A stretch of DNA of 64,000 nt, taken from sequence record MH494197.1; one strand, given 5' to 3'. Every line of letters starts with the position of its first letter. The stretch's first letter is position 1. Of the stretch, positions 2,655 to 40,712 are shown piece by piece. The position numbers and the translations under genes are program-made. The notes below the pieces were generated by a model. That model had not been told where the DNA came from. It searched no databases and saw only the letters and a list, made by a program, of their open reading frames with translations. The DNA is from Escherichia phage CMSTMSU.

Positions 2655-2690
2655 ATTATAGCAAAAGGGCTGACTAGTGTCAACCCTTTT
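2655..2690 (-). promoter_or_regulatory. hairpin-embedded sigma-70 promoter (terminator-promoter cassette)
   Basis: minus strand GGGTTGACacTAGTCAGCCCTTTTGCTATAAT, then GAGGA RBS and ATG of ATPase gene. Confidence 0.6.
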
Positions 2691-2813
2691 GTTTTAGATA
2701 ATTTGTACTTCATCATAGATCTTGCACGATTTGCTTTCCGGGTTATTTGTAAATTTATACCTAGTGGAATCAAGAATTATTTTAAATCTTCTTTCACATA
2801 GTACTCATATAAT

Positions 2814-3011
2814 TTAATTACTTTTGTATATTGAATCACATTGTCTACGCAATAGTTTATAGTATGCTTTACCACGAGGAAATAGTTTACGTGTATGTTC
2901 TCCTTTTCCCCACGGTCCTAAATATGTTTTACGCGTGTCGTGATTATTAAAGTTATTTGATACAGTTGATTTTGTACCAATCGGATCTTCCTTACTAAAA
3001 TAGATAGACAT
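2814..3011 (-). CDS. hypothetical protein
   Basis: 65-aa ORF, basic. Confidence 0.35.
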   Translation of the reverse strand: MSIYFSKEDPIGTKSTVSNNFNNHDTRKTYLGPWGKGEHTRKLFPRGKAYYKLLRRQCDSIYKSN

Positions 3012-3039
3012 TATAAAGTTCTCTCTTCACTAAGTTTTT

Positions 3040-3746
3040 GTATTAAACTATTTCGGTAGCTCCATACTTAAAGTAAATTTCCTTAATCATTTCAAGATTA
3101 TGGATGCTTGTAGTTTCAGACCAACCATCCTCCATCAATTCACGTTCAATAATACCTTTCGTATTATGGATTTTAATATTTTCAGTTTGAAACAGTTTCT
3201 TACATTCAGTTTCGGCAGCAATACAATCAACTGGATTTTCAAATTTAAAAGAGCTAATACGTTTTATATCATAATAACATTTTAAGTTTTGTTCATATTC
3301 ACGACGACCGAGGATTGTTTCAATTCCATATTTTAGCCCAATATATTCACCTGCATTACATATACCACTAATATATGCAATTTTTGATTGCGATGTGCCT
3401 TACGAGGATTGCCACATCCACGCAAATGTATAGATGGTGTTTGCCAGAATTCATCACCACTTTCTGGATCAATAATACACACATTAGTACGGGCATCAAT
3501 ATACTCTACTTTACTGTAATCATATTGTTCATCGTGAATTTCGTTAGCCCTGTTGATAAATTCATCAATTGACATTTTATTTTTCAGGCCAGTTGATATA
3601 TTAGCACGATCATTATTACCACATCCCATCAAATGTGATGATGGTGTTTGCCAGAATTCACCATATACTGGATCTATAATACATACCTTAGTACTGTTGT
3701 TTACGTATACGACCTTACTATAATCATACAGATTATCATGCACCAA
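3040..3746 (-). CDS. repeat-module protein (two YDYSKV...C-I-I-D-P-x-x-G-E-F-W-Q-T-P modules), frame-disrupted near 3330
   Basis: ORF 3333..3746 holds two ~60-aa internal repeats; reading continues in another frame to ~3040. Confidence 0.5.
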
Positions 3747-4615
3747 ATTGGCCTTCTCGATAAATTCATCAAGTGTTAAGCGTTTACTCTGTGCCGTTTT
3801 TCAAAACCACGGATTGGGTTTCCATGACCTTTCCAATGGTAGATTGGTTCTTGCCAGAATTCACCATATACTGGATCTACAATACATACCTTAGTCCATG
3901 CACCAGTATACTCCACTTTACTGTAGTCATATAAATGACCATGTACTGCACGAGAACGTTCAATAAAACTTCGTTGGTGAATGTTTTATTTACTGAAGTT
4001 CCTATACGCCCACGTTCCATGTTACCATGCTTGGATTTTAAATGGTCATATGGCGTTTGCCAGAATTCACCATACACTGGATCAATAATGCATACTGGAG
4101 TTTTACTATTAACATATTCTACGTTTGAATAATCGAACGTATTTCCAAAACGTTCGATAGCTTCAGCTATAAATGTTTCAGTTGTTTTTGATTTAAGTTT
4201 TTACCATTTTCAATGGCACGTTGTGGGCTACCTGCACCTTTTAAATGGGAGCTGGGTTCTTGCCAGAATTCACCATACACTGGATCAATAATACATACCT
4301 TAGTGCTATTATTTTTATAAACAACTTTACTATAATCATAGAGGTTGTTATGAACTTTTTCTGCTCGTTCTATAAACGTTTGGGTGGTTAATTTGCCAAC
4401 ACCTGAACGATATGGATTCCTGACCGCGAATGTGATGTGACGGAGTTTGCCAGAATTCACCATACACCGGATCAATAATGCATACTGGTTCTTTAGCTTT
4501 TACATACACTGCTTTTTCGTAATTATAGAGATCACCATGTACATTTCGTGCAGCAATTAAAAAGTTTCTTGGTCGGTAACACGCATTTTCTTTATCCCTA
4601 GTACGTTTCATTTCG
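3330..4615 (-). repeat. tandem array of at least 5 copies of a ~40-codon coding module
   Basis: motif YDYSKVVY..KVCIIDPVYGEFWQTPSSHL.G.G recurs in ORFs 3333..3746 (x2), 3877..4077, 4167..4475, 4348..4611 in different frames. Confidence 0.6.
4167..4611 (-). CDS. repeat-module paralogue(s), two overlapping frames
   Basis: ORFs 4167..4475 and 4348..4611 each carry one module; RBS and ATG at 4611. Confidence 0.4.
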
Positions 4616-4621
4616 ATAGAG

Positions 4622-4656
4622 CTATAATAGCAAAGGGCTGACCGAAGTCAACTCTT
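4622..4656 (-). promoter_or_regulatory. degenerate hairpin-promoter cassette
   Basis: TTGACTTCGGTCAGCCCTTTGCTATTATAG upstream of ATG at 4611. Confidence 0.45.
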
Positions 4657-4863
4657 TGATATGATAATATAATCATTCCATAAATTATATATATTGTTTT
4701 CAACACAATCATCATCGCTTAATTCTATAATTGACGAGATAAGTTCTGATAAGGTTTGTGTGTTCAAAACCGTATCACGATGTCTCAACCACCATTTCAT
4801 GGTGAGTGTTCGGATTTTGTACGGATTGTTTGAAAACTTGTATCTAGAAGTGTCAAGTATCAT
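4648..4863 (-). CDS. hypothetical protein
   Basis: 71-aa ORF. Confidence 0.35.
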   Translation of the reverse strand: MILDTSRYKFSNNPYKIRTLTMKWWLRHRDTVLNTQTLSELISSIIELSDDDCVENNIYNLWNDYIIISKS

Positions 4864-4875
4864 TTTAATCTCTAT

Positions 4876-5310
4876 TTACTTAATCATCTCGGTATAGTAC
4901 TCAGGTAACTCAACATCAGTAAATTTATACCACTTAGGCTTCATTTGGAGCTTCTCAATCAAGCGTTCACGAGACATTTTAATCTCTGAATCAGATGGTA
5001 CATAGTCCGCAAAACTCCGCAGGAAGCCGCTAATGTCGTTTAATTCAATGTTTTGAATCTTCATACCACGACGCAAACATTCGTTAACAATTTCAATATG
5101 ACGCTTCTGTAAGTACAATAACTTGTTGTAGAAGAATGTTACATGACCTGAACCTAACAGGTAAGTACTGTTAATTTTGAAATCACGTACACGCTTACGT
5201 GCTTGAACATGTTTTTGTACAGCACCAAATACACGTGGAAGTTCACGATATTCAGCCATCAGATGTTGGTCAGCAAGTTCTTTAACGTGTACTAAGTTAA
5301 TGCGGGTCAT
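4876..5310 (-). CDS. denV: pyrimidine dimer DNA glycosylase / endonuclease V
   Basis: [31 protein letters not shown]... closely matches T4 endonuclease V as recalled from memory; ATG at 5310 after GAGGATGAA RBS (track ORF starts at TTG 5367 and reads through the promoter hairpin). Confidence 0.85.
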
Positions 5311-5337
5311 GTATTCATCCTCTCGTCTTGATGAAAT

Positions 5338-5374
5338 AATTATAGCAAAAGGGCTGACCGAAGTCAACCCGTTT
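5338..5374 (-). promoter_or_regulatory. hairpin-embedded sigma-70 promoter
   Basis: GGGTTGACTTCGGTCAGCCCTTTTGCTATAAT: -35 TTGACT, 17-bp spacer, -10 TATAAT, UUCG tetraloop hairpin. Confidence 0.65.
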
Positions 5375-5720
5375 TGAAAGGATTTTTAATGGTTTTCGTA
5401 CTGTATGTATTTTGCTTTGTAGTTCTTCTTCCCACAAAACATTTATATTATAAACTAAATCATTGTAGTCACTGTTCACAAAGATAAAATCATACTTCTC
5501 ATTAAAAGTATGAGAAATCAATTTCATTTTCATAAGTATTATTGAACTTTTAAATTTATATGTTTCTTTTTCTTCTCCAGTTTTTGAACTTTGTATATTT
5601 TTATAAATTCCATGAATTCATCATTGGTCATTGTTTCAGCATCCAACAATACCCAACTTCACAATCTCATACCCGTCCAGATATCCGTAGGAACACTCAG
5701 GTGTTTCATAAGATGAACCA

Positions 5721-5972
5721 TCATAGATGCCCGCATTGGCTTTTGGAATTCTCAAGCAATCGTTGCAGTACTGATACGTCATCAAGAACGTAATACAAGT
5801 TAGCATATAAATCCGTTACAATACAGTACTCCAACATGTCAAATGTATCAATCGAAATTTCAACCTTAGCAAATCGTTTCTTTTCTTTATTATACAATGC
5901 GTACATATTAATCTCCATAATCAAGTTTAACCAACTTACCACACAGATACCCAAAGTTTTCTGGCTTCGCAT
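5721..5972 (-). CDS. hypothetical protein
   Basis: 83-aa ORF. Confidence 0.4.
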   Translation of the reverse strand: MRSQKTLGICVVSWLNLIMEINMYALYNKEKKRFAKVEISIDTFDMLEYCIVTDLYANLYYVLDDVSVLQRLLENSKSQCGHL

Positions 5973-6011
5973 CTGAATAGAAGAAGTCAGTACTCAACTC
6001 TGAATCCAATG

Positions 6012-6323
6012 CTAAAGCACACAACTCCACCCAAAATAAACCCTATGTTGTACTGGCTTACAACGTTTCTGTACAGTTACTAGTCCAGTACATGATGACC
6101 ACAACGTAGGGCAGATACCACTATCACTACGCTTGGAGTACTGCATCCAAGAACGTTCATTGAGGTTAGCTATCATCCCTGTTAAGAATAGCTTCCAACT
6201 TTTAAAGGTTGGAATCTTGATAGCATATTCCCCAATGAGTATGACAGTTCGTGTTGCACCTTTCAAATCTATATTCATATTTTTAATTAGAAGAACACAA
6301 ACCAAGTCCAGAATAAATTCCAC
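6012..6323 (-). CDS. hypothetical protein
   Basis: 103-aa ORF. Confidence 0.4.
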   Translation of the reverse strand: MEFILDLVCVLLIKNMNIDLKGATRTVILIGEYAIKIPTFKSWKLFLTGMIANLNERSWMQYSKRSDSGICPTLWSSCTGLVTVQKRCKPVQHRVYFGWSCVL

Positions 6324-6538
6324 ACTACAAATAAAGACATAGTGGTTTTATGTACAATATCAGCAGTACTGGTCCATCCTCCACCGTGTCCTATTCCATT
6401 TATGAATAGAACTAAGAACAAGATACCATTTACTACAATAGTACATAGTAAGTACACAAACACATTCCATGCAAGTTCAGGAGATACTAACGTAAATGGT
6501 AAAACAATTAGTAGTATTAGAACTAATAAAATTTTCAT
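6287..6538 (-). CDS. small membrane protein
   Basis: 83-aa hydrophobic ORF. Confidence 0.4.
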   Translation of the reverse strand: MKILLVLILLIVLPFTLVSPELAWNVFVYLLCTIVVNGILFLVLFINGIGHGGGWTSTADIVHKTTMSLFVVWNLFWTWFVFF

Positions 6539-6569
6539 TTATCGCCTCACTTAATTAACGTGACAATTA

Positions 6570-6746
6570 GTACGAATCAGATTCCCAGTACTCGATTGCT
6601 TCTTTCAGCAATTCTTTAGCACGTTGTTTTGCAATGCGAGCGGGTAACAGATATGTGTACATTAACTGACGCTTCACTTCATTCAGTGAAAGCTGTTCAT
6701 GGTACAGTGCATCCATCAGTCGATTACGAGTACGTAGTTTCATATA
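6570..6746 (-). CDS. small basic protein (58 aa)
   Basis: hand translation MKLRTRNRLMDALYHEQLS...; below track size cutoff. Confidence 0.35.
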
Positions 6747-6754
6747 AGTTATCC

Positions 6755-7309
6755 TTATTTCAAAGAATCATAGTAAGCAGTGTCAAAGATTGGAGTCATA
6801 ATAACATAGTCAATACGGTCAATGTAAGTTGAACTCCACATTTCTGGTTTGTCATAAAATTGACGCTCGCGTTCATTCATACGAGTCAGTACTTCTTCCA
6901 ATTTACTACGTGAAGCCATCAATGTATTACGCGATCCATAAGTGAAGTACTCAGTCCATTGATATTCATATTCAGTACTGATAGATTGAATAGTACCATC
7001 TTTGAAATGAGCTAAGGCATATCCTTTCTCTACAAAGTTATCAGGTGGAAGAACACCATCTGGATTAGTTTTCAATGCTTTGGTTAACTTTTCTTTAATT
7101 TCAGTTAACGTGCATACTGAACGAATGTTCTTCAGGTTTGATACTTGAAAATCACTGTACTTTCCAAAGAAAAATACACGCCAATCTTTAGGTTCATTAT
7201 CAGATACGGTAATATTCGGATGATGGGCGAGTAAACGAAGAAGGCCAGCTTTGTGACCGTTAATGTAGATCTCATGGATGTGGTTAGCAGTTTTCTTAAA
7301 AGTAATCAT
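6755..7309 (-). CDS. hypothetical protein (184 aa)
   Basis: long intact ORF; GAGGAA RBS; preceded by consensus promoter. Confidence 0.7.
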   Translation of the reverse strand: MITFKKTANHIHEIYINGHKAGLLRLLAHHPNITVSDNEPKDWRVFFFGKYSDFQVSNLKNIRSVCTLTEIKEKLTKALKTNPDGVLPPDNFVEKGYALAHFKDGTIQSISTEYEYQWTEYFTYGSRNTLMASRSKLEEVLTRMNERERQFYDKPEMWSSTYIDRIDYVIMTPIFDTAYYDSLK

Positions 7310-7354
7310 GACAATTCCTCGATTGTGGGGATGAGAAGTTCATCCCTTGATAAA

Positions 7355-7381
7355 CATTATACAGTACTGAATGAGTTTGTC
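7355..7381 (-). promoter_or_regulatory. sigma-70 promoter, TTGACA-N16-TATAAT with CAGTACTG in spacer
   Basis: minus strand TTGACAaactcattcagtactgTATAATg. Confidence 0.65.
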
Positions 7382-7384
7382 AAC

Positions 7385-7762
7385 TCAAAATAAATTCATT
7401 TCATGTGCGTATTGTGGTTCAAGATGCGATAAGTTTTTGAAGCTTTCTTTCAACTCAGCATCATCTACATACACCGTGCGTACATTCCCCATAGTGAAAC
7501 CTACCCACACAGTCATGTCACCAGTCCCTAAGCGTGGCATTGATAGCGAACCATCAGGTGAAACATCAAACGCTACACTGAAGTCATCAGTAACAACGTC
7601 TGAACCATTTTCGAGAATAATACATCCACTATCTTTAAGCTTCTGAATGTGGATAGCAGCCTCTACAGCACGTTTGAAGTTATAGTAAGACTCTTTATCC
7701 TCAAACATTGATTGTTTAATCAGACGCTTGTTTAGCTCGGTTACTTTGTGCATTTGACGCAT
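7385..7762 (-). CDS. hypothetical protein (125 aa)
   Basis: intact ORF. Confidence 0.6.
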   Translation of the reverse strand: MRQMHKVTELNKRLIKQSMFEDKESYYNFKRAVEAAIHIQKLKDSGCIILENGSDVVTDDFSVAFDVSPDGSLSMPRLGTGDMTVWVGFTMGNVRTVYVDDAELKESFKNLSHLEPQYAHEMNLF

Positions 7763-7792
7763 TACTTATCCATCTCCCACAGTTGTAGAATT

Positions 7793-8017
7793 TCATAAGA
7801 GCCGGTGGTGCTGGATTCCTGATCTCAGGAATTGAGTACTTTTAGGATTACCACCAGCATTAAATTCGTCAAGTAATGATTCCAGTTCGCGACGATCCTG
7901 AACAACATAAACACAATCACCTGAACCTTCTTCGAGAATCATTTCACTTCCTGCACAATCCCATACTGTTGAGATACATAGAATCTCTTTTGTATTTTTA
8001 TTACGCAATGCAAACAT
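7793..8017 (-). CDS. hypothetical protein
   Basis: 74-aa ORF. Confidence 0.45.
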   Translation of the reverse strand: MFALRNKNTKEILCISTVWDCAGSEMILEEGSGDCVYVVQDRRELESLLDEFNAGGNPKSTQFLRSGIQHHRLL

Positions 8018-8025
8018 AGTAATCC

Positions 8026-8229
8026 CTATCGATTTGGCATTTTATCTCGTAATTTCACAAGATAATCAATCACGGTACATCCTGAAATAAAGGTAATATA
8101 AGTACTGAAAAATCCTACCAGAATAAAGGCAACAAGCGTACTCCCATTTGGTTCTTCAGCTTTAATACCAATGATACCATCAGATGCAGTGAAAAATGTA
8201 GACATAAACGTTAGACAGATGTACATCAC
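8026..8229 (-). CDS. small membrane protein
   Basis: 67-aa hydrophobic ORF. Confidence 0.4.
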   Translation of the reverse strand: MMYICLTFMSTFFTASDGIIGIKAEEPNGSTLVAFILVGFFSTYITFISGCTVIDYLVKLRDKMPNR

Positions 8230-8369
8230 TAATAAGAATTCATGTTCTAATGACGGATAAAACGGTCAAAAGTTTATAAAATTTAAAGTACAGTAGGAGT
8301 ATACCAACAAAGGCATAGAAAGTAAACAGTGTTGTTATGATATATGATATTAAATTTAAATTATACATC

Positions 8370-8660
8370 TCAACGCTCCGGTAGATTATCACGTAATGTT
8401 TTGATTCGATTATACAATTTCATTGCTACATTCCCAAATAAACCAGAACCCATTACTAAAATGTATGCGATGATCATAGTAATAATTACAATAGTACCTA
8501 GACTGTAATGTACTGCACTGATACCCATTATTGTTTCTACAATGATGTGAGCAACAGAAATCACCAAAAGTACTACTACAATTGGATGATTTGGATACAT
8601 TCGGTTAAACAATGTTTTGTACTTAAAGAAGTACAGTACTCCACCAAATAAGAAGTACAC
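8370..8660 (-). CDS. membrane protein
   Basis: 96-aa hydrophobic ORF. Confidence 0.45.
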   Translation of the reverse strand: MYFLFGGVLYFFKYKTLFNRMYPNHPIVVVLLVISVAHIIVETIMGISAVHYSLGTIVIITMIIAYILVMGSGLFGNVAMKLYNRIKTLRDNLPER

Positions 8661-8719
8661 AATGTAGATTGATGCAACGGCATAAGCAAACGCATTAGTG
8701 TAAAAATCATTATCAATCC

Positions 8720-8983
8720 TTACTTTTCAGGGATTTTATTACGCCACTCATCGATGCGATGAAGCAGTTTAAAGAGCAAAAATATTGGAACTGTAGCTAT
8801 CATAGTAGCAATTGTTAGTAATGTCAACACCGATACGAGATTTAATTCGTCCGTACTATATCCACATACCAGTGCTTCAATTATCCCCACGTACATGCAC
8901 AGAACATCAAAATGAAATTGGTGCATCGTAGTATATGCGTTGATACAAGGTCGTGTATCGGAAGAATGCAATAATGTAACCAA
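8720..8983 (-). CDS. membrane protein
   Basis: 87-aa hydrophobic ORF. Confidence 0.45.
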   Translation of the reverse strand: MVTLLHSSDTRPCINAYTTMHQFHFDVLCMYVGIIEALVCGYSTDELNLVSVLTLLTIATMIATVPIFLLFKLLHRIDEWRNKIPEK

Positions 8984-9063
8984 ACATGTAATACACCCAA
9001 ACTAACGATACTATATAAAATGATACCTTATTAATTAATTCAAAATGATGTTCCATTTTACCC

Positions 9064-9366
9064 CTACATATATTCTAAGAATAATGTATTAGCTTCGTCT
9101 ATGTTCTTAAGATAATACATGTAATACAGATTTGGTTGTCCGTCTTTTGAACTCAAATCAAAGTACTTTAAACTATGCACCTTCATGACAAAAACAAATA
9201 ATGACTTAAAACCAATCTCACCGTACTTAATAAACAGTTCATCTAAATGAATGTAACTCTTAGTTTCAGATAATTCCTTCACATCAGCTTCAATTTCTTG
9301 TAAGCGAAGTTTACCGATTAAGTTTTCAAATGAACGCATGATCTTGTTCCTTATGCTGGTACACAA
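9064..9366 (-). CDS. hypothetical protein
   Basis: 100-aa ORF. Confidence 0.45.
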   Translation of the reverse strand: MCTSIRNKIMRSFENLIGKLRLQEIEADVKELSETKSYIHLDELFIKYGEIGFKSLFVFVMKVHSLKYFDLSSKDGQPNLYYMYYLKNIDEANTLFLEYM

Positions 9367-9520
9367 TTTTTTATAATGAATACACGTTTCATGAATGAAC
9401 TTTCATATACGTACTTCAGTTTACCATTTTCACGCATACGATGAAACACATCTTTACCGCTAGTACTCCATGTTGAACCAGTCTCTGCATCAACATTGTT
9501 CATTACACCAGATGTTACGT

Positions 9521-9763
9521 TTACCCGTACTTGAAGCTAAAGGTACTACCTTCTTCTACCAGAGGGATTGGTGTACTACGTTCATGTTCCAGTACAAGTT
9601 TACTGCCGATGATGTTGTACGAAGTTATCTTGCATTTTAAAACACCCATCTCTTGTGCAGTTGGGTAATTCTTCTCAAACAAATCAGATACTTCATTTGC
9701 ATAACAAACTGAACTAATCATAAGAAGTAATGAACTGATAGAACGGAAAATAACTTTTAACAT
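9521..9763 (-). CDS. secreted small protein
   Basis: N-terminal signal-peptide-like segment; GGAGG RBS; promoter cassette upstream. Confidence 0.55.
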   Translation of the reverse strand: MLKVIFRSISSLLLMISSVCYANEVSDLFEKNYPTAQEMGVLKCKITSYNIIGSKLVLEHERSTPIPLVEEGSTFSFKYG

Positions 9764-9789
9764 GTTTGCCTCCAGTAGTTGATGAAATG

Positions 9790-9826
9790 ATTATAGCAAA
9801 AGGGCCGACCGAAGTCAACCCTTTTC
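9790..9826 (-). promoter_or_regulatory. hairpin-embedded sigma-70 promoter
   Basis: GGGTTGACTTCGGTCGGCCCTTTTGCTATAAT. Confidence 0.65.
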
Positions 9827-9842
9827 TTTTATATTTTACATG

Positions 9843-10440
9843 TCATGTCTGGTTTTGGCTTTTCATTCTTTGGCTTTTCAAATGGATTTGGCTTAGGGAC
9901 TTTTTATCTTTGTCATCTTTAGCTTTCTTTTTGTTTTCTTTTTTATCCGATTTGTCAGCTTTGTCTTTCTTATCTTTTGAATCTTTGTCAGCTTTAGATT
10001 GTGGTTCCTCACATACAGCAGCTTTTGGCTCCGGCATATCACATGAGTTATCCACAGGTTTAATGAACTCTTTACAGTTGTAGAAGTATAAACTTTCATT
10101 GGTAGTAAGATTGTGGAATCTAAAGGTATTTTCACCATTAGTATATACTTTCTTAGTACTCTCAATATCATTACACATTGCAACCGTGTCACCGGAATTC
10201 ACGCTCGATACCTATTACATCCGACTTACGTTCAGATAGTATTCCAGACGTATATCGATCTTTGTTATCAAATGCATTGAACCCTATAGTTTTATTATTG
10301 TCATGTACCAATCCTCTAGTGTAAGACTTCGTATAGAACTCACCGTTTCTAAACTCCTGTCTAGCAATGGAGCACTGGTATTCAGTACTATAAACTATAT
10401 CAGTAAACAATACAAGTGAAAATAAAACATATTTAAACAT
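9843..10440 (-). CDS. secreted protein with Lys/Asp-rich C-terminal tail, frame-disrupted near 10195
   Basis: signal peptide MFKYVLFSLVLF... (ORF 10189..10440) continues into ORF 9843..10202 ending in a KDKKDKADK low-complexity tail. Confidence 0.45.
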
Positions 10441-10464
10441 TGCATTACCTCTTATAAAACCCTC

Positions 10465-10502
10465 AACAATATTTACAAAAGGTTGACCGAAGTCAACCTT
10501 TT
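10465..10502 (-). promoter_or_regulatory. hairpin-promoter cassette variant
   Basis: AAAAGGTTGACTTCGGTCAACCTTTTGTAAATATT; perfect palindromic stem, weaker -10. Confidence 0.5.
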
Positions 10503-10849
10503 AAATGTTTATTTTTATCTTTTCCAACACCACGGTCGTACTCTTTGAATGAGTTATCAAGTGTAGTTAGTGCATACTCATATGCTTCTGGTGATTCAAT
10601 GTCAACATCATCTGCACCATTTACTAAATCAGCCCACGCCTTTTGAAGTTTACGAGCATTGTTACCAACATTATCTTTAATCCAACTAATGTTTTGTTGA
10701 TACTTTTACTATCAGCACCTGCTTTTTACCAATCTCGGATATCCACATCATTAGCTTTTGAAGTTCATGAATTGATTTATCGGTCATTTCAAGATGTTCT
10801 TCTTCCATACCTTCGGAATCAGATGAACTAACGTCAATTCCATGTTTAG

Positions 10850-11955
10850 CTAATAGTTTACCAAGTTCAAAGAATGCAGCTTCAGCAGGAAGTCATAACC
10901 TTTCTCTTTGTAGTTATTCCATGCACTATCAAACTCGTCAACAAAACGGTTAGCATAATCTGGATTTTTAACTAATGCTTTATATACTGCCATTGCATGT
11001 TCAAAACCTTCTTTATCTGACCCAAACTCTTCCATCTCAGGACGATGAATGTATCCATCCATATCAACGGTATCAGGTAGATCTTCTTGCTCAGGCTCAA
11101 CATCTTTCTGTTCAACTGCACCTTCTTCATCTGCACGCTTTAGATAACCATCTGGTGTTACCTTCTCACCATGTTCGGCTTCATACTTTTTCATAGTGTT
11201 GAATGCAGCATCCATAGCTGTTACGAAGCGACTTTTCTCACCTTGTACATAAGATTTAAGTGCACTGTTAACTGCATCTGATACGAGCTTAACCTTATCG
11301 TCTTTACCTTCTAAACGGTTTTCAAGTTTAGCCAGTACATTCTTGACTTGCTGGGCATTAGCACGGTCTGCTTTACCAATACTATCAAAAGTTTTAAGAA
11401 TACCATCAAGACTTGCTTCACCCTGTTCAGGTTCTTTGGAATCTTCTTTGTGTGTACCTTCAAGTGCACGCATGATAGTACTGAATACTTCAGTAGGTTC
11501 AGTGCTCTTATTACCTTTCATTGCATCAAGTACAGCTTGTGCTTTACCTTTGAGTTCTTCTTTAGGAACTGCCTGTAGTGCTTTGACAATACCCTGAATC
11601 AACTGTGGTTTGTTAGCAAAGATCTTACCTAAGTTATCAGATAACTCTTTAACAGGGTTAGCTGCTTTAGGAGCTTCTGGTTTTGGTTCTTCTTTAGGAA
11701 CTGCTTGTTCTTTCTCAGCACGTTCCATATCAGCAAGGCGTTGTTTCTGTGTTGCGTTAAGAAGACCTAATGAGTTAACATAACGTAGCTTTTCTAGCTC
11801 AGTCATGTTCTCAGTACTCTTAACTTCACCTGCTTCTGCGTTTGCCTTACCAGCTAAACCTGTCCCTTGATTACGTGAACCACGTGACCCTGTCCTGCTT
11901 GGTAGCTATTTTGACGACGATTGCGTTCACTCCATTTATCAGAGTGACCTGCCAT
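10850..11955 (-). CDS. acidic charged protein (318 aa core), N-terminal extension frame-ambiguous
   Basis: intact ORF 10850..11806; Gly/Ser-rich upstream reading in two other frames (11807-11955) suggests a disrupted N-terminus. Confidence 0.6.
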
Positions 11956-12034
11956 GTTCCCGCCATTTTTATCAGTAAATTGACGGCATTTGATTTCTCT
12001 CCATAGATTTCATATTGTTTATTCTCTATGACTA

Positions 12035-12079
12035 TATTTATAGTATAAAGAAAAGGTTGACCGAAGTCAACCCTATTTT
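12035..12079 (-). promoter_or_regulatory. hairpin-promoter cassette
   Basis: GGTTGACTTCGGTCAACCTTTTCTTTATACT followed by TATAAATA. Confidence 0.5.
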
Positions 12080-12094
12080 CACTGTACTATACCA

Positions 12095-12421
12095 TTAGTA
12101 GTTACAGTCAGCTTTCGCTGTGAATGTTTTACTTTCTCCGCGTTGTGTGGTGATTCGTCCGAGTAAAGTAGTTTTGTCAATAGTCATTGTAGTTAGTACT
12201 GGAACATTACCTTCAAAGTCAATAGCTTTGAAATTGTAGGTGGTTTCATTCTCCACTACACTTGGACCAAAGAGTTCATATGTGTTGATTTCAAGTGTGT
12301 CACCATCCGAACGCATCAGTGTACAGTCCAGATTAGGAGTAGCCAGTACAGGGAAAGCCAAACACATCATCATTGCAATAATTAATTTCATTTCACTTCT
12401 CCTGTTTTTTCTTAGGATCAA
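12095..12421 (-). CDS. secreted/periplasmic protein
   Basis: 108-aa ORF with signal-peptide-like N-terminus MKLIIAMMMCLAFPVLA. Confidence 0.55.
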   Translation of the reverse strand: MILRKNRRSEMKLIIAMMMCLAFPVLATPNLDCTLMRSDGDTLEINTYELFGPSVVENETTYNFKAIDFEGNVPVLTTMTIDKTTLLGRITTQRGESKTFTAKADCNY

Positions 12422-12502
12422 CCAATGACCAAATGAAGAATCCGAGAATTACAAGTACCCACAGAATCATGATAAAGAAAGCAAACAGTACAATAGTATT
12501 TG

Positions 12503-12649
12503 TCAAAAGAAATACAATAGAATGTTCGACCCAATACTACATACAATCAATGCAGCTTCATGTTTAACAACACGAATGGCTGTAATGAGTGCGGGAAGAA
12601 ATCCGACAAATAACAGTACTAACGCATATAGTGATAATGTTTCAGCCAT
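12503..12649 (-). CDS. small membrane peptide (~48 aa)
   Basis: hand translation MAETLSLYALVLLFVGFLPALITA... Confidence 0.3.
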   Translation of the reverse strand: MAETLSLYALVLLFVGFLPALITAIRVVKHEAALIVCSIGSNILLYFF

Positions 12650-12657
12650 GATATCCC

Positions 12658-12771
12658 TTATTTGGTTTGTTCAGCACTAGGTGTATTGATATAGGTGTCA
12701 ATTGAATAACATACTGTACCCACTACAACAGCAGCGATTAGGGCAGCGATGATGAATTTAGTACCTTGCAT
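12658..12771 (-). CDS. small membrane peptide (~37 aa)
   Basis: hand translation MQGTKFIIAALIAAVVVGTVCYSIDTYINTPSAEQTK; directly after promoter cassette. Confidence 0.3.
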   Translation of the reverse strand: MQGTKFIIAALIAAVVVGTVCYSIDTYINTPSAEQTK

Positions 12772-12814
12772 AATTTAATACCTCACGTTGTTTGTATTTT
12801 GTATCACTTGATGA

Positions 12815-12857
12815 AAATATTATACGACAAAGGGCTGACCAAAGTCAACCCTTTTAA
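12815..12857 (-). promoter_or_regulatory. hairpin-embedded sigma-70 promoter
   Basis: GGGTTGACTTTGGTCAGCCCTTTGTCGTATAAT. Confidence 0.6.
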
Positions 12858-12936
12858 TTATTTTTAAACTTATGTTTTTCGCCTTCAATAGAGTTCACGA
12901 TGTCATCATGAATCTTGCGAAGGTTATGAGTTTTCT

Positions 12937-13239
12937 TTAGTGCTTCATGTAGTGCACGGAATGCTGCGTGTACTGTTGCCTTGAAGTGCTCTTTAGAGTC
13001 ACTTTAAGTTTCTCAATGATATCACGTACATAAATTGGATGTTCTTCAAATACACGATTCAATTCATGGCCTAGTGATTCTAAACTGAAAGCTTTTTCGC
13101 GTGAAGGACGATCATGTGCAAGACTTTGGTCAGGCTTTAGTAGACCTAGTGAATCAAGATACTTATGCTTATGTGCATTATCAATTCCAGAAATATCCAC
13201 ATCATGCGATGGATCTTTCTTATTCCATTTATCAACCAT
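12937..13239 (-). CDS. hypothetical protein
   Basis: 100-aa ORF. Confidence 0.45.
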   Translation of the reverse strand: MVDKWNKKDPSHDVDISGIDNAHKHKYLDSLGLLKPDQSLAHDRPSREKAFSLESLGHELNRVFEEHPIYVRDIIEKLKVTLKSTSRQQYTQHSVHYMKH

Positions 13240-13371
13240 TTCATACTCCTTAAAGAGATAAATTACTTTAATATTTATACTTCATGTGCTGTTTATTTCT
13301 ACAGACACTTAAGATTATATCACGTAAGAAATGGTTGTCCCAAAGTCAAATCAGTACTGTTTAAGTTCTGA

Positions 13372-13800
13372 ACTGAAGATAAAGGAATCCATATCTTCTA
13401 GTGTTAACTTCAAGTCCGGTGTGTACTTTAATATCACACATTCAGGTTTCTTAATGGCAGCTTGATAGGCAGCAATTGCCAACTGTTGAAGCTGCTCTGG
13501 CGTGTAGTTCATGCGTTCTGCATTGAATACGATGTTCTTAATATCACCACCGGCAGCTTCTCGAACTCACGCATAACAGCAGCCATCACATCATCAGATG
13601 TATTCTTATAAGCCCAATGAGGTAGTTGCATAACGTCATAAATCTCGCCATTGTCGTTCATAAGAGAGATCCATTTTTACCGTCCGATGAACTAAACAGA
13701 CGACCTTTAATAGCAATGTTCTCTACCAAATTAACAAAGGCAAATATGTCTTGCTCATTTAGCTCAATGCTATTAACGTTAATCCAACCCATACTACATC
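13372..13800 (-). CDS. hypothetical protein, frame-disrupted
   Basis: hand translation joins MGWINVNSIELNEQD... with ...GEIYDVMQLPHWAYKNTSDD... across a frame change. Confidence 0.35.
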
Positions 13801-13805
13801 TCCAG

Positions 13806-14240
13806 TTATAAATCACGAACGACATTCATTAAACACAATTTGGGCTTTATCGCATTCAAAACCCATATGCATTCTTTGTAAGTTGCTATTATAGCATCTA
13901 AATGCTCAGTTACAATGCTTTCTTGAAAATATTCTTCTTCATTGAGCTTTGCTAAATTAGTCACATCACATGTAGGTACTATAGTTCTGGATTGTACACC
14001 CATTCCATTATTGATATTGGTAAAATGTAAAATTTGTACTTCACCACACCGTTATCTACACTTATGATACATGTCAAATGTTCCAACTCAGTTAGTTCGG
14101 TATTACAAGTGACATGGATGAATCCAGCATTATAGGCTCTATAATCATCTACTAATATCTCAAAATCATTACGTTCAAATATAAGTGAAATGAGTTTGTC
14201 TTGTGGTTTAACCTTCTGAAATTTTAACGAATTTACGTAT
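13806..14240 (-). CDS. FQxS-motif family protein, frame-disrupted
   Basis: ORF 13806..14003 carries NEEEYFQESIV; upstream reading continues in another frame. Confidence 0.4.
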
Positions 14241-14375
14241 GATACTTTAATCTTAGATGAAATTATCTTTTACTAAGTGCAGTTAATTCTTCTTTAGCCT
14301 TAAAAGTTAAAGTTATAGGTCTAAATCTAGAACTTTTGTTCTTCTTTGATACTTTGAACTTACCTTTTCTATTCA

Positions 14376-14666
14376 TTAATTAAACCCCACATAAAGTAAA
14401 AGGGATGGCATATTACCAACCCTATATCTTTTATTTTTAATAGATTCATAAAGCAGAAACAACCAAATAAACATTGATGAACAAACTACTACTGGGATTA
14501 ATGTAAATTCAGTAAAGAATAAAAGTATTCCATAAGTTAGTATGCAACATAAGTTTACGTACATAATTGCTTCTGCATTTTTATTTTTCATTTTATATGC
14601 AATGAATGTTGGTGACCACATTACCAAAAATGCAAACAACGCACATATGATGATTATAGTTTCCAT
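14376..14666 (-). CDS. membrane protein
   Basis: 96-aa hydrophobic ORF. Confidence 0.45.
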   Translation of the reverse strand: METIIIICALFAFLVMWSPTFIAYKMKNKNAEAIMYVNLCCILTYGILLFFTEFTLIPVVVCSSMFIWLFLLYESIKNKRYRVGNMPSLLLYVGFN

Positions 14667-14746
14667 ATTACACCTCCGTAAAATAATGTTCTGTACTGCT
14701 ATTATTTACAGAGAATATCTGAAAAATTGATCTGATCAATTTTTAG

Positions 14747-14959
14747 TCACTTTACAATTTGAATCTTTTTGTACTGAACAATCACATTGTTCTTAAGGAA
14801 GATGATGGTCCCATAGGAACCTTGGGCTGCAACTTCAACAATATGGTTCTTATATGTTTCAGTATATCCTTCCATCTCGTTGATACACACTACATGATAC
14901 TTTGGTTTAGCACATACAACAGTACTCAAGAATAGCAGTACTAGTACTAGATATTTCAT
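14747..14959 (-). CDS. secreted small protein
   Basis: 70-aa ORF with signal peptide MKYLVLVLLFLSTVVCA. Confidence 0.5.
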   Translation of the reverse strand: MKYLVLVLLFLSTVVCAKPKYHVVCINEMEGYTETYKNHIVEVAAQGSYGTIIFLKNNVIVQYKKIQIVK

Positions 14960-15009
14960 TTTATTACCTTATAAACAAGAACAGGAATCCTTTTACGGAT
15001 TCCTATAAT

Positions 15010-15303
15010 TTAGTCCTTTAATGTACCATTGTGTAAACGATTATACACATCATTGCGACGCAACTCAACAATATCTTCAGCGTACTTCATTGTAAACGCC
15101 CATGCTTTTGGATGCACATTAAGCTTCATACGAATGCGATTCTTCATCAATTCACCGCTTAGGCGAACAAACTCATGAACACCACGACTTCCGTACTCTG
15201 AAATCAAATCATTGATGTACATGTTGCGAAGGGTTTCGTCTGTACATTCTTTAACCATTTCTACGTCTGCCACGATGCTTGCATTTACTGAAGTACTGAT
15301 CAT
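15010..15303 (-). CDS. hypothetical protein
   Basis: 97-aa ORF. Confidence 0.5.
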   Translation of the reverse strand: MISTSVNASIVADVEMVKECTDETLRNMYINDLISEYGSRGVHEFVRLSGELMKNRIRMKLNVHPKAWAFTMKYAEDIVELRRNDVYNRLHNGTLKD

Positions 15304-15349
15304 TTTAAGTTACCTTATTTGAATTGGACTGTAATTTTATCACCTTCAA

Positions 15350-15577
15350 CTACGAACTTACAGTCGTAGCGACGGCCATATCCATGTACATATGCTCAGA
15401 ATACCACGGAACATCAATCTCAGGATGCTCTGCGTATTGTAGCACTTCACGGTCACCAACAGTAGTGATGACAAAGGAATGTTCATCTCTCGCAAAACAA
15501 CTCAGCACCGGTGAACGATTGACAAACTCAGTGTCGTTACGCAAAGTAAAACCATTGTATTGTAATTTAAGCTTCAT
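15350..15577 (-). CDS. hypothetical protein
   Basis: 75-aa ORF. Confidence 0.45.
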   Translation of the reverse strand: MKLKLQYNGFTLRNDTEFVNRSPVLSCFARDEHSFVITTVGDREVLQYAEHPEIDVPWYSEHMYMDMAVATTVSS

Positions 15578-15591
15578 GATTATCCTCTAAG

Positions 15592-15840
15592 TTAATACCA
15601 TTCTTTTAAACCATCAAGTTCGGCTATGTGAGTAATTATAACACAGATAACACTCAGGTCAAGCATTATTTGCTCATAATTTAATTTTATTCTATCATCA
15701 TTGTATGCTCGAAAAACAACATCAAAGTCAAAGTAGTTATCGTTTTCATCATTCATTGGAATGATTCTATATCTACGTCTACCATCATCATTGAATACAG
15801 TCAAACACTGTTTGAATTTCTTCATTAACTGTGTAGTCAA
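15592..15840 (-). CDS. hypothetical protein
   Basis: 82-aa ORF. Confidence 0.45.
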   Translation of the reverse strand: MTTQLMKKFKQCLTVFNDDGRRRYRIIPMNDENDNYFDFDVVFRAYNDDRIKLNYEQIMLDLSVICVIITHIAELDGLKEWY

Positions 15841-15927
15841 TGCATTGTAATATGCAACATCATATTGTGTACAACGTGGGTCATTGGGTAGATAAAACGA
15901 TACAAATTTTTTAATTCTATTTGAGTC

Positions 15928-16245
15928 TTATCCATATACAGCCTCATGTATTACTCTTTTACTTTGGCGGTACTCATCCTTTGCTTCTTTCACTGACATG
16001 ATACGAACCAGTTTAGCACTACCACAATAGTACTGAACCTGACTACGACCAATGTCAACATGACTATCAGGAACTTCATATACTGATACAGCAAACCCTG
16101 CACGATGTAATTTACCCAAGTCCATAGTAAAGAACTTAAACAAATCATTCAAACTCTGACAGCCAAATGCCCAGCCACGTTTGATTGAATAGATTCCATC
16201 TTCAGTTGGTTCTGGTTGGAATTGCGAAGGCGTGGTCATGCACAA
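15928..16245 (-). CDS. hypothetical protein
   Basis: 105-aa ORF. Confidence 0.5.
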   Translation of the reverse strand: MCMTTPSQFQPEPTEDGIYSIKRGWAFGCQSLNDLFKFFTMDLGKLHRAGFAVSVYEVPDSHVDIGRSQVQYYCGSAKLVRIMSVKEAKDEYRQSKRVIHEAVYG

Positions 16246-16391
16246 ACGGTCAAATCCATTTTTAGTACTGTATCGTGAAGAGTACCGTGCGAACGGACCT
16301 ACTGTTTTGCTGGATCTAAGTTAGGTTCAATATAACTGAATTTAAGTTCAAAACGATATACGTACATAATTAAAATCCCAGTATTTGATGA

Positions 16392-16434
16392 AATAATTAT
16401 AACAAAAAGGCTGACCGAAGTCAACCTTTATTTT
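16392..16434 (-). promoter_or_regulatory. hairpin-embedded sigma-70 promoter
   Basis: AAGGTTGACTTCGGTCAGCCTTTTTGTTATAAT. Confidence 0.6.
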
Positions 16435-18422: not shown

Positions 18423-18804
18423 TTCTTTTCACCTTAAGAAAATTATAACATAAAACAACCTCAACATCTGGCTCATCATACAAGTACTCAAAGCGTTCTT
18501 TACTACGCTTAGTACCGATGTACTCACCATTCTTATGCCAACGCCACCCACCACTCTCTGGTTGGTCAGACTTCAGTACTGGATGATAGCACAAGACAAT
18601 TTCTTCTGGACCTTCAATAAGGTTCTTGTACTTCGTCAAAATCTGTTCAAGCGTATCTGCTACACCATAAGATGGGTGCATAAGATAAGACTCAGGGCGT
18701 GCACGACCACTTGGTAGAATGTCATCAGTACTATTAAAGATAGCACGGAAGTCTTCTGACGTGTATAAACTTCCATCTTCATGGATCATGGGATACTCAT
18801 CCAC
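18349..18804 (-). CDS. hypothetical protein (151 aa)
   Basis: long ORF; C-terminal ~25 codons overlap ORF 18180..18422 and may be a frame artefact. Confidence 0.5.
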   Translation of the reverse strand: MDEYPMIHEDGSLYTSEDFRAIFNSTDDILPSGRARPESYLMHPSYGVADTLEQILTKYKNLIEGPEEIVLCYHPVLKSDQPESGGWRWHKNGEYIGTKRSKERFEYLYDEPDVEVVLCYNFLKVKRNVSSIEFCSRIIVYVLPYTSSSSH

Positions 18805-22106: not shown

Positions 22107-22134
22107 ATTATACAGTACTGATATCTTATGTCAA
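22107..22134 (-). promoter_or_regulatory. sigma-70 promoter, TTGACA-N16-TATAAT
   Basis: TTGACAtaagatatcagtactgTATAATg. Confidence 0.6.
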
Positions 22135-24487: not shown

Positions 24488-24516
24488 AAAAGGCTGACCG
24501 AAGTCAACCCTTTAAT
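24488..24516 (-). terminator. UUCG-tetraloop hairpin terminator (cassette without a good -10)
   Basis: GGGTTGACTTCGGTCAGCCTTTTT downstream of sigma-factor gene. Confidence 0.5.
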
Positions 24517-36697: not shown

Positions 36698-36770
<73 letters not shown>

Positions 36771-36773
36771 TGA

Positions 36774-36856
<83 letters not shown>

Positions 36857-36907
36857 AGAAGTAAGATAACCAACAAGTCTCCATACTCTTTCGCATTGAG
36901 GGGAGGC

Positions 36908-36968
<61 letters not shown>

Positions 36969-37020
36969 GCCAAGTGTCGGCATAGGTGCAGCACTATAAA
37001 GTTCTTCAAGCTGTTTGGCA

Positions 37021-37110
<90 letters not shown>

Positions 37111-37112
37111 TA

Positions 37113-37237
<125 letters not shown>

Positions 37238-37256
37238 GCATACTCGAAGTACCTCT

Positions 37257-37294
<38 letters not shown>

Positions 37295-37313
37295 AACTGA
37301 ATACTTACATCCC

Positions 37314-37348
<35 letters not shown>

Positions 37349-37400
37349 ATAGGCACACACGGAACTGCTTTATAAGCTACTGAATCGGGAATCACAACCT

Positions 37401-37660
<260 letters not shown>

Positions 37661-37724
37661 TAATACCCGCTAGTAGTTTAAGTCTGCGGCGTTGAAGACA
37701 CCAAGTGAAGTCTTACCACGTAGT

Positions 37725-37964
37725 TTAGGTGAAATGACATATTTTGTCAATTTCTTTTACCGTACCAGTGATTGAATTCGTCTTCAGTAACATGTGGGTT
37801 CTGGAAATCGTATTCACGTTTCTTATGAAGTTTTTAGCTTGTTCTGCAATCTTAGTTCGTTGATCTTCTGGAATGTCGAATGTATTGTTACGTTTGCACC
37901 ATTCGTGCACTAATGCTTCCAGAAGGAACTGTTCAGTTTCTTTGACTAGAGTGATTTTAGTCAA
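37725..37964 (-). CDS. hypothetical protein
   Basis: 79-aa ORF. Confidence 0.4.
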   Translation of the reverse strand: MTKITLVKETEQFLLEALVHEWCKRNNTFDIPEDQRTKIAEQAKNFIRNVNTISRTHMLLKTNSITGTVKEIDKICHFT

Positions 37965-38075
37965 GCCTTTTCGATGTTCATATAATCATCGACATATCCA
38001 TTCCAAATAACAATCTCTGGATTGCCGTCAATCTCTTGAAGCATTTTGATCAAGTCATTCTTTTCATTTAAATTC

Positions 38076-38321
<246 letters not shown>

Positions 38322-38341
38322 AAGTATGCCATATTTGTTTC

Positions 38342-38527
38342 CTATGAAATGAATGTAGCGTTAATTCCCATTATAAATGCAAATATACCAAACAATATCA
38401 GACCGATTGGTACAAAGATCATAGATCTATTTCCATGTTTCGATAAAAATCGTTCAACTGTAATTAAACGTATTGATATCGGAACCATTATAATAATATA
38501 CAATATTGAAAGAATTAAAAGTTGCAT
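38342..38527 (-). CDS. small membrane protein
   Basis: 61-aa hydrophobic ORF. Confidence 0.4.
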   Translation of the reverse strand: MQLLILSILYIIIMVPISIRLITVERFLSKHGNRSMIFVPIGLILFGIFAFIMGINATFIS

Positions 38528-38556
38528 TTTAATTTCCTATTGTAATTTCGTTTTTG

Positions 38557-39352
<796 letters not shown>

Positions 39353-39711
39353 TCACCAACTTTAATTAAAAAATGGATGGTGACGCTTTTAAACGCCGCT
39401 GTTAATTCAGCTTTATAACCACCGTTTTAACTTGCCTTTCGGCTACCTTGACGTGGTGCGTACAGGCTACTAAAAGCAACTACTGTAAACATATTTCCAC
39501 GCCTTACCCTTTTAAATAAAAGTCCATCCGGTTTTCCAGTTTGGTGAAGGATAGTCACCTCTAGTTTAAACCTGCTAGTCAAGTAATAATTGCCTATCGT
39601 CCAATTATCAAACCCGTCTAGGTTAACATTCACCACTTCCTAGAGTACCAGAGATCTTGTTCTGGATTGCATCGACGTAACTTACACCATATACGTCTGA
39701 TTGTGGAATTC

Positions 39712-39745
<34 letters not shown>

Positions 39746-39805
39746 TTTACAAATCTGGACGTTCATCTTTAAACATATTAATCTCCTTGGTACTGAACTA
39801 TTTAT

Positions 39806-40218
<413 letters not shown>

Positions 40219-40235
40219 CTTTTTATTCATCGGTA

Positions 40236-40273
<38 letters not shown>

Positions 40274-40287
40274 TTAAATATGCTTTG

Positions 40288-40322
<35 letters not shown>

Positions 40323-40387
40323 AGAATCTAATGGTAGATAATAAGGATTCCACTTTATTTTTGGCGTTTCATCCACTCTTCATGTGT

Positions 40388-40561: not shown

Positions 40562-40712
<151 letters not shown>

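Follow-up and report, generated by a model that had tools for sequence, protein, structure and literature searches.

Composite elements that join a promoter to a terminator are known from T4-type phages, where they have been named promoter-early stem-loops (PeSLs). In the coliphages phi1 and RB49 they are intergenic and consist of a strong sigma-70-like promoter, an upstream AT-rich tract and a stem-loop terminator that can sit in the gap separating the -35 box from the -10 box or overlap either of them; both activities were measured by lacZ fusions, and PeSL-PeSL recombination gives mini-circles and gene swaps (Arbiol et al., 2010; PMC2839356). PeSLs have since been extended to PST/T4 and nt-1/KVP40; the nt-1 stem-loops follow the pattern A3-4 G3-loop-C3 T3-4, and the nt-1/KVP40 elements lie in intergenic positions among small early ORFans, tied to insertions, deletions and replacements between close relatives (Comeau, Arbiol & Krisch, 2014; PMC4122927). 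Here we report on a stretch of 64,000 nucleotides from Escherichia phage CMSTMSU (MH494197.1), hereafter the window, in which a short cassette recurs nine times on the minus strand. Sequence comparisons make it likely that this cassette is a composite terminator and early promoter of PeSL type, and place it as punctuation in the small-gene early region of an Asteriusvirus-like jumbo coliphage.

The published nt-1 PeSL region contains AAAAAGGGTTGACAGATGTCAGCCCTTTTTTGTATCAT (44.6 kb), with GGGTTGCTTCGGCAGCCC and AAAAGGGTTGCTTCGGCAGCCCTTTTTTGTTATTCT variants and CATCGAAACGA leaders, and KVP40 has GAAAAGGGTTGACTGCGGTCAGCCCTTTCGCGTATTAT...TTCATCAAC with the same architecture. There, as in the window, A3-4 G3 precedes a hairpin holding the -35 box, followed by C3 T3-6, a -10 box and a CATC(G/A)AAAC leader, and BLAST aligns the KVP40/nt-1 element with the window cassette at 83% identity over 52 nt. 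Both are intergenic among small early genes and associated with gene replacement between relatives. Since the layout is shared, the window cassette would be an nt-1/KVP40-type PeSL in another phage lineage, an E. coli Asteriusvirus jumbo phage rather than Vibrio Straboviridae; the -35 box is the consensus TTGAC(T/A) here, but TTGYVH in nt-1/KVP40. Two degraded copies in the window resemble the '1/2 PeSLs' of PMC4122927. The phi1/RB49 elements likewise combine a promoter, an AT-rich tract and a stem-loop that may overlap the -35 box, mediate modular shuffling, and are the one example for which promoter activity, terminator activity and mini-circles have been measured or shown (PMC2839356). Their stem-loops, however, are polyG/polyC and take five positions relative to the promoter, whereas in the window cassette one arrangement is fixed: the 5' arm contains the -35 box, the loop is cUUCGg and the T-run lies within the spacer. 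Among the hallmarks of PeSLs, we found a short intergenic site, near-consensus boxes with an AT-rich tract, a stable stem-loop, a Shine-Dalgarno sequence and ATG, a hyperplastic region and an association with recombination. The original setting in T4-type myoviruses does not apply, the nearest relatives being Asteriusvirus and not Straboviridae, which is a matter of scope and not of mechanism.

Two further systems deserve comparison. The rho-independent terminators listed for phages G17 and CBB are the very hairpins seen here, for example GGGTTGACTTCGGTCAGCCCTTTTTGCTATAC in CBB, with the embedded promoter unrecognised: homologous hairpins are annotated as rho-independent terminators (ARNold) in the G17 GenBank record, and GGGTTGACTTCGGTCAGCCC... 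appears in Table S8 of the CBB supplement as terminators Torf39, 515, 518 and 520 and is absent from the CBB promoter list. The 'morons' of lambdoid phages (PMC2839356) are, like the genes considered here, accessory genes each with its own promoter and terminator, but their regulatory sequences do not recur as a conserved cassette, and recombination is not attributed to them, whereas the window cassette fuses terminator and promoter in one repeat. In the literature searched, no PeSL and no composite promoter-terminator element was reported in the 121Q/PBECO4/RaK2 group, and the paper on the RaK2 genome is silent on both kinds of signal. A search for TTGACTTCGGTCA led only to an unrelated regulon paper, and a general search on bifunctional promoter/terminator elements gave nothing useful. 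The N1M2 jumbo-phage paper was set aside as a precedent, its promoter being phiKZ-like and unrelated.

A pattern scan for GTTGAC-N4-GTCRRC returned nine minus-strand copies, with cores at 2669, 4637, 5353, 9804, 10482, 12056, 12834, 16410 and 24493, and no further copy in the 64 kb; a repeat search independently recovered the same nine as family D2, so that every site listed by the initial annotation of this DNA was borne out. Its description of a 32-mer recurring with small variations fits only in part: the sequence is exact at 5339-5370 only, has one mismatch at 9790-9821 and three at 16396-16427 (shuffles gave none), and the remaining copies are more diverged. All nine cassettes are intergenic and on the coding strand between 2.6 and 24.5 kb, with none in 24.5-64 kb, and their neighbourhood consists of about 66 small genes labelled 'hypothetical' in relatives. 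Intergenic junctions that hold a cassette measure 54-106 bp in six cases, and the hairpin starts 6-9 nt past the upstream stop codon (in G17) and ends about 40 nt ahead of the next start. The placement shortly before a ribosome-binding site and start codon, as originally described, applies to seven copies, in which 26-47 nt separate the -10 box from the start codon and GAGG or GGAG motifs and an ATG are present; the 24488 copy has no following Shine-Dalgarno sequence or start codon, and about 460 nt without an annotated gene come next. In four copies (2619-2690, 5303-5374, 9754-9825 and 16360-16431, minus strand; family D4 of the repeat search) conservation extends over 72 nt, taking in the hairpin, the -10 box, a YATTTCATCAA start region and the Shine-Dalgarno sequence, as far as the start codon. 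Comparison with related phages, proposed at the outset as a check, found the cassette in all six relatives.

Several lines of evidence support selection on the hairpin as gene-strand RNA. Folding energies of the nine hairpins as RNA range from -13 to -20 kcal/mol (z-scores -3.8 to -6.7), and in 9/9 copies the minus-strand RNA exceeds its plus-strand counterpart in stability, because the U·G pairs of GGGUUGAC/GUCAGCCC turn into C·A mismatches on the other strand. The UUCG loop, at first ascribed to the cassette as such, is present in seven of nine copies, with ACUA at 2669 and UUUG at 12834. We assembled 92 unique cassettes from the window, its six relatives, a search of the public viral-contig collection IMG/VR with GGTTGACTTCGGTCRRCC (47 loci) and several reference phages. 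Standard pairs fill 95.2% of cells in this set, and both-side changes occur in 49 cells against 10.1 in shuffles, a value reached by 0 of 500 shuffles; the signal collapses when the partner column is slid. All six outer pairs, which the search pattern left unconstrained, covary (e.g. GGG/CCC, GTAC/GTAC, GGGA/TCCC, TGG/CCA), and stem length is variable. The partner of the first T in TTGAC is U·G in 75 cassettes and U-A in 17, a preference that may retain RNA pairing while removing a second TTGAC from the opposite strand. Most loops are either UUCG (96 of 162) or of GNRA types, closed by a C-G pair, and a T-run follows the stem in every cassette. A GC-rich stem and a U-rich tract are thus both in place, and a terminator scanner lists 5370-5351, 16429-16406, 12074-12053 and 4652-4637. 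Strand asymmetry, covariation, UUCG/GNRA loops and the U-tract therefore argue for the RNA hairpin of an intrinsic terminator rather than a DNA operator. Rfam at gathering threshold, run on the whole window and four related loci, returned no family at any cassette.

The promoter half also appears to be under selection, a view supported by its sequence in the window and beyond. In five copies the promoter is consensus, with TTGACA or TTGACT and TATAAT set 17-18 bp apart, and a TG precedes the -10 box in four of the five; two copies have -10 boxes matching at five of six positions (4622-4656, TATTAT; 12035-12079, TATACT); overall, 11-12 of 12 promoter positions match in the former five and 10 of 12 in the latter two, with an A-tract upstream. 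The claim that each copy gives TTGACT, 17 bp and TATAAT thus holds in substance for five copies, with two more near consensus; the copies at 10465-10502 and 24488-24516 have lost a credible -10 box and are probably terminators only. Exact TTGAC-N15-19-TATAAT sites number 23 in the window, all on the minus strand, against 0.9 expected, and the remaining 18 consensus promoters lack the cassette hairpin. Among 62 unique IMG/VR copies of the 18-mer hairpin, 45 (73%) have a -10 box of at least 5/6 at 16-19 bp, compared with 2.9% at random positions in the same loci, and 41 of these 45 carry an extended -10 TG at -15/-14. Conservation runs on past the -10 box, with CAT at the expected start site, an A/C-rich leader and a Shine-Dalgarno sequence. 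The 5' arm is constant as TTGAC in the window and the six relatives, while the 3' arm alternates between A and G. In PA5oct, a distant relative that depends on the host polymerase, RNA-seq start sites have TTGAC and TATAATA motifs. A plus-strand promoter at the perfectly palindromic copies 10482 and 12056 was considered and rejected, there being no -10-like hexamer at 17 bp. One further composite was seen in the window, on the minus strand at 62140-62204 after a stop codon: it combines TTGACA-N15-TATAAT with a 16-bp hairpin, AAGAGTGCGTTTCAAT / ATTGAAACGCACTCTT, that is followed by TTTT and encloses the -10 box, and it resembles PeSLs of the class in which the stem-loop overlaps the -10 box.

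The quality of the window sequence bears on the length of the spacer. The window has a GC content of 32-38%, a negative GC skew throughout and nearly all of its open reading frames (ORFs) on the minus strand; its closest record is WPEC3, at about 98% identity, and megablast groups it with the Asteriusvirus-like jumbo coliphages 121Q, PBECO4 and G17. Homopolymer runs of at least six occur at 2.3 per 10 kb, against 12-16 in five relatives (about 5-fold depletion), and in alignment with WPEC3 bases are missing from the window at 128 gaps, 90 of them in homopolymers, and from WPEC3 at four. Such one-directional single-base deletions are likely an assembly or sequencing artefact, and they fragment many ORFs of the window. 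Genes that are intact in relatives are split here, for example at 1857-2626, 3043-4586 and 10509-11989 (ATP-binding protein, 516-aa 'endonuclease' and virion structural protein). Because these frameshifting deletions make simple ORF calling unreliable, gene positions were transferred from the WPEC3 annotation. The cassette's T-run has four bases (T4) in the window, whereas each of the six relatives has T5, and as many as T7, at the corresponding sites; therefore the -35/-10 spacer of the main cassette class in the real phage is probably 18 bp and not the 17 bp first reported. In the cassettes of other phages, the spacer is 17 bp in 49 cases and 18 bp in 59.

The initial proposal that one element both terminates a transcript and starts the next is supported by every sequence test that we ran. 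A polymerase arriving from the upstream gene would transcribe AAAA-GGGUUGAC-UUCG-GUCAGCCC-UUUUU, and the nascent RNA would fold into a GC-clamped hairpin of 8-12 bp with a cUUCGg tetraloop, followed by a U-tract, at which the upstream transcript would end or at least be stabilised. As duplex DNA, the same bases would form a near-consensus sigma-70 promoter, in which the A-tract resembles an UP element, the 5' arm provides the -35 box TTGAC(T/A), and the 3' arm and T-run make up the spacer of 17-18 bp; TGn-TATAAT would come next, then a CAT start site and a leader of some 20 nt that includes a Shine-Dalgarno sequence. Host sigma-70 holoenzyme would then initiate 7 nt past the -10 box, early in infection. 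Because terminator and promoter are combined in one cassette, each downstream gene or gene group would be an insulated unit, and the promoter would be protected from polymerases arriving from upstream. E. coli RNA polymerase often remains on the DNA after intrinsic termination and can re-initiate nearby (PMC6978380), so one may speculate that a terminator placed inside a promoter leaves the polymerase on the -35/-10 boxes and hands it straight to the next start.

The cassettes are also associated with recombination. Local BLAST of window positions 1-28000 against the six relatives gave 28 breakpoint clusters, of which seven had a cassette no more than 30 bp away, where length alone would predict 0.9 (P ~2e-5); under a stricter null of 66 intergenic junctions, nine of which have a cassette, the excess gave P = 0.007. 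Homology ends at 5369-5375 in all six relatives, homology to G17, 121Q and CRJP21 stops at 12079, and G17, 121Q and TH47 have breakpoints at 12808-12829, at the 12815-12857 copy. When the genomes of seven phages were cut at their cassettes and compared slot by slot, the slot 2690-4637, from the denV module to the ATP-binding-protein gene, had at least five unrelated contents, and the slot 12079-12815 was likewise variable. At base level, the same cassette links five upstream gene ends (ORFx, a G17_00097-like gene, an HNH endonuclease, a DUF4379 gene and gene 219) with three downstream genes (denV, a gene-220-like ORF and the DUF4379 gene) in differing combinations, and the DUF4379 module lies upstream of denV in TH47 and downstream of it in Turkey3. 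Among close relatives, then, gene modules between cassettes get replaced, inserted and reordered. Since about 50 bp are near-identical at many intergenic sites, the cassettes also act as portable homology for recombination, and the breakpoint data indicate that they are preferred, not exclusive, crossover sites. Immediately upstream of the denV cassette, at 5375-5640, the window has a small ORF. An HNH endonuclease gene fills this slot in WPEC3 (7651-8064 of the extracted locus L006), Turkey3 and TH47, and the slot is empty in G17, 121Q and CRJP21; TH47 carries the same small ORF, with its cassette, at another position. Free-standing homing-endonuclease genes seem to share slots with cassettes.

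It might be argued that the hairpins are intrinsic terminators and nothing else, the TTGAC and TATAAT motifs being incidental and the downstream genes served by read-through or other promoters. This is how the G17 record and the CBB supplement present them, two copies (10465-10502 and 24488-24516) have no good -10 box, and the window holds many other sigma-70-like promoters without hairpins. Yet incidental motifs would sit poorly with the 73% of unique IMG/VR hairpins that have a well-spaced -10 box of at least 5/6, against 2.9% at random, and with the TG in 41 of 45, nor would they account for the 72-nt conservation of family D4 through the -10 box, CAT region and leader, or for a 5' arm fixed as TTGAC, in the window and the six relatives, while its partner drifts between A and G; we regard this explanation as very unlikely. 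The converse possibility is a promoter whose inverted repeat, GGGTTGAC/GTCAACCC, serves as a DNA operator over the -35 box for a dimeric phage or host protein, with no function for the RNA hairpin. A near-perfect inverted repeat centred on the -35 box has the classic geometry of a repressor site, and large lytic phages switch off their early promoters as infection proceeds. On DNA, however, the commonest form of the cassette is asymmetric, with GTCAG and not GTCAA and hence U·G in 75 of 92, so that the RNA pairs while the palindrome is broken. The outer stem pairs, moreover, covary freely (GC, AU, UA, CG) in stems of varying length, the loops are of RNA-stabilising kinds (UUCG in 96 of 162, or GNRA types), a T-run follows every stem, and the element occurs in unrelated phages, including a Herelleviridae phage of a Gram-positive host, for which a common repressor is improbable. 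An operator without a hairpin function thus appears hardly credible.

A third possibility is that the cassettes are mainly selfish or portable recombination linkers, spreading with the small genes that they flank, regulation being secondary. Near-identical cassettes bound chimeric junctions and hypervariable slots, breakpoints are enriched at them, near-identical cassettes occur in distant phage lineages, and PeSL mini-circles have been demonstrated in phi1 and RB49 (PMC2839356). Such a role is compatible with a composite terminator and promoter and does not exclude it, but the promoter and terminator features are strictly conserved, as expected under regulatory selection, the cassettes come with no recombinase or target-site duplication, and most breakpoint clusters fall elsewhere; as the main explanation it seems unlikely. 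The composite terminator-promoter itself has to be set against several observations. Two copies have no credible -10 box, and the 18-bp spacer of the relatives is suboptimal, though the TG compensates. The phage encodes its own sigma-like factor, and the host sigma-70 holoenzyme is a candidate user of these promoters. The predicted fold can pair the A-tract with the U-tract, which might reduce termination efficiency, and 21 of the 28 breakpoint clusters lie away from cassettes, the counts being of non-independent events.

BLAST with a 58-nt cassette query found 603 places in 172 phage records. Rak2-like jumbo phages (121Q, RaK2, CBB and fHe-Yen9) carry 6-10 copies per genome, and the same layout is present in T4-like Vibrio and Aeromonas phages, in rV5-like Vequintavirinae (CR3) and in the Brochothrix phage A9 (Herelleviridae, Gram-positive host). 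What they share spans 35-50 bp: an A-tract, GGGTTGAC-UUCG-GTCAGCCC, a T-run, TGn-TATWAT and a CATCGAAAC leader. No match was found in 5,426 complete E. coli genomes, and the cassette is therefore a phage element. Its recurrence across lineages could reflect convergence or horizontal transfer, a choice that is testable. The sequence is almost wholly dictated by function: TTGAC is the -35 box and its C closes the loop, the C-G-closed UUCG stabilises, the stem is G-rich at its 5' base and C-rich at its 3' base, and the U-tract falls within the spacer, with TGn-TATAAT next. Convergence is therefore plausible; TTGACT is found in the T7 A1 promoter as well, whose transcript start, AUCGAGAGG, is similar to the CATCGAAAC leaders. 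That the cassette is instead one horizontally circulating module, a universal homology linker moving early-gene cassettes between unrelated virulent phages, is a tentative idea that we consider rather doubtful.

The individual copies, all on the minus strand, differ in completeness. The full cassette at 2655-2690 reads AAAAGGGTTGAC-ACTA-GTCAGCCCTTTT, then GC-TATAAT; its hairpin folds at -20.3 kcal/mol (z -6.7), and its promoter has a -35 TTGACA at 2683-2678, a TG at 2663-2662 and a -10 box at 2660-2655 with a 17-bp spacer, with a predicted start site at about 2648 and a start codon at 2626 in the homolog of the WPEC3 'ATP-binding protein' gene. At 4622-4656 the hairpin is GAGTTGAC-TTCG-GTCAGCCC and the promoter (4624-4651) TTGACT, 16 bp (17 bp in WPEC3) and TATTAT, ahead of the homolog of the WPEC3 'endonuclease' gene, which starts at about 4586. 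The full cassette at 5338-5374 holds the exact 32-mer, with its promoter at 5339-5367 (TTGACT, 17 bp, TATAAT), and is predicted to drive denV (endonuclease V), which starts at 5310. The next full cassette, at 9790-9826, has its promoter at 9790-9818 (TTGACT, 17 bp, TATAAT) and a start codon at 9763, and its 3' arm GTCGGCCC gives two U·G pairs. At 10465-10502 the hairpin AAAAGGTTGAC-TTCG-GTCAACCTTTT and T-run (T7 in relatives) are accompanied by a degenerate -10 box, AATATT/TAAATA (AATATT only at 10468-10496), so that this copy is mainly terminator-like. The hairpin at 12035-12079, GGGTTGAC-TTCG-GTCAACC followed by TTTTCTT, comes with a promoter at 12042-12070 (TTGACT, 17 bp, TATACT) ahead of the virion structural protein homolog. 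Full cassettes also occur at 12815-12857, with a UUUG loop and a promoter at 12819-12848 (TTGACT, 18 bp, TATAAT, no TG), and at 16392-16434, which reads AAAGGTTGAC-TTCG-GTCAGCCTTTTTG-TTATAAT, with its promoter at 16396-16424 (TTGACT, 17 bp, TATAAT) and a start codon at about 16367. The copy at 24488-24516 has a hairpin and T-run and no -10 box, and lies directly 3' of the phage sigma-factor gene; the homologous site in G17 is an ARNold terminator in the GenBank record. The region as a whole is a row of small early genes, mostly 'hypothetical', with denV, the phage sigma-factor gene and free-standing HNH endonucleases among them.

Other features of the window and its relatives were noted in passing. 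The palindrome AGTACT occurs 165 times in the window, against 17.8±4 in shuffles, and CAGTACTG 40 times against 0.84. Sites are spaced about every 300 bp, within genes and in one promoter class (TTGAC...CAGTACTGTATAAT), for example at 7362-7369, 18574-18581, 22113-22120 and 40196-40203; the excess is 8-18-fold also in WPEC3, G17, 121Q, RaK2 and CBB fragments, and is not seen in CR3 or Brochothrix A9. A literature search on the AGTACT excess found nothing. Six tandem units of about 204 bp, 60-80% identical (family D1), occupy 3427-4542 in the ORF homologous to the WPEC3 'endonuclease' CDS125, which would therefore encode a protein of repeated modules of about 68 aa, and a 161-bp tandem duplicate lies at 40368-40689 (family D5). 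An Rfam scan found five tRNA genes on the minus strand in the early region (36698-40908), where relatives annotate Ser, Met, Thr and Asn tRNAs. In eight loci from CBB, 121Q and uncultured jumbo phages (L025, L029, L032, L038, L042, L045, L055 and L056), a conserved non-coding unit of about 50 nt replaces the gene downstream of many cassettes and other sigma-70-like promoters. It reads ...CATTGGCAGATAAGCC..TA(A/G)CCCAYAGGGTGC(A/G)G..TATCTAT, followed by AGTACT and a second promoter, AAAAAGTACTTGCA...TATAAT, with 3-4 repeats per 10 kb, and may be a family of small phage RNAs; it has no Rfam family at gathering threshold in L025, L032, L045 and L055, and no copy in the window.

In summary, this kind of element is already known, and its dual function has an experimental precedent in phi1/RB49 (PMC2839356). 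What is new is a PeSL-type cassette in 121Q/RaK2-type jumbo phages, found listed there as a terminator only; the strand-asymmetric U·G signature is new as well, as is the observation that unrelated phage lineages carry a nearly identical cassette. As a compact natural part for design, it would offer a terminator, an UP-like tract, a -35 box, an extended -10 box and a leader in about 65 bp. For the biology of these phages, the embedded promoter would alter the predicted early operon map, making many small genes separately driven, insulated units. Our data would also carry the model of PeSLs as 'mobile regulatory cassettes' from T4-like to giant Rak2/121Q-like phages, with the surroundings of denV providing concrete cases of cassette-mediated gene swapping.

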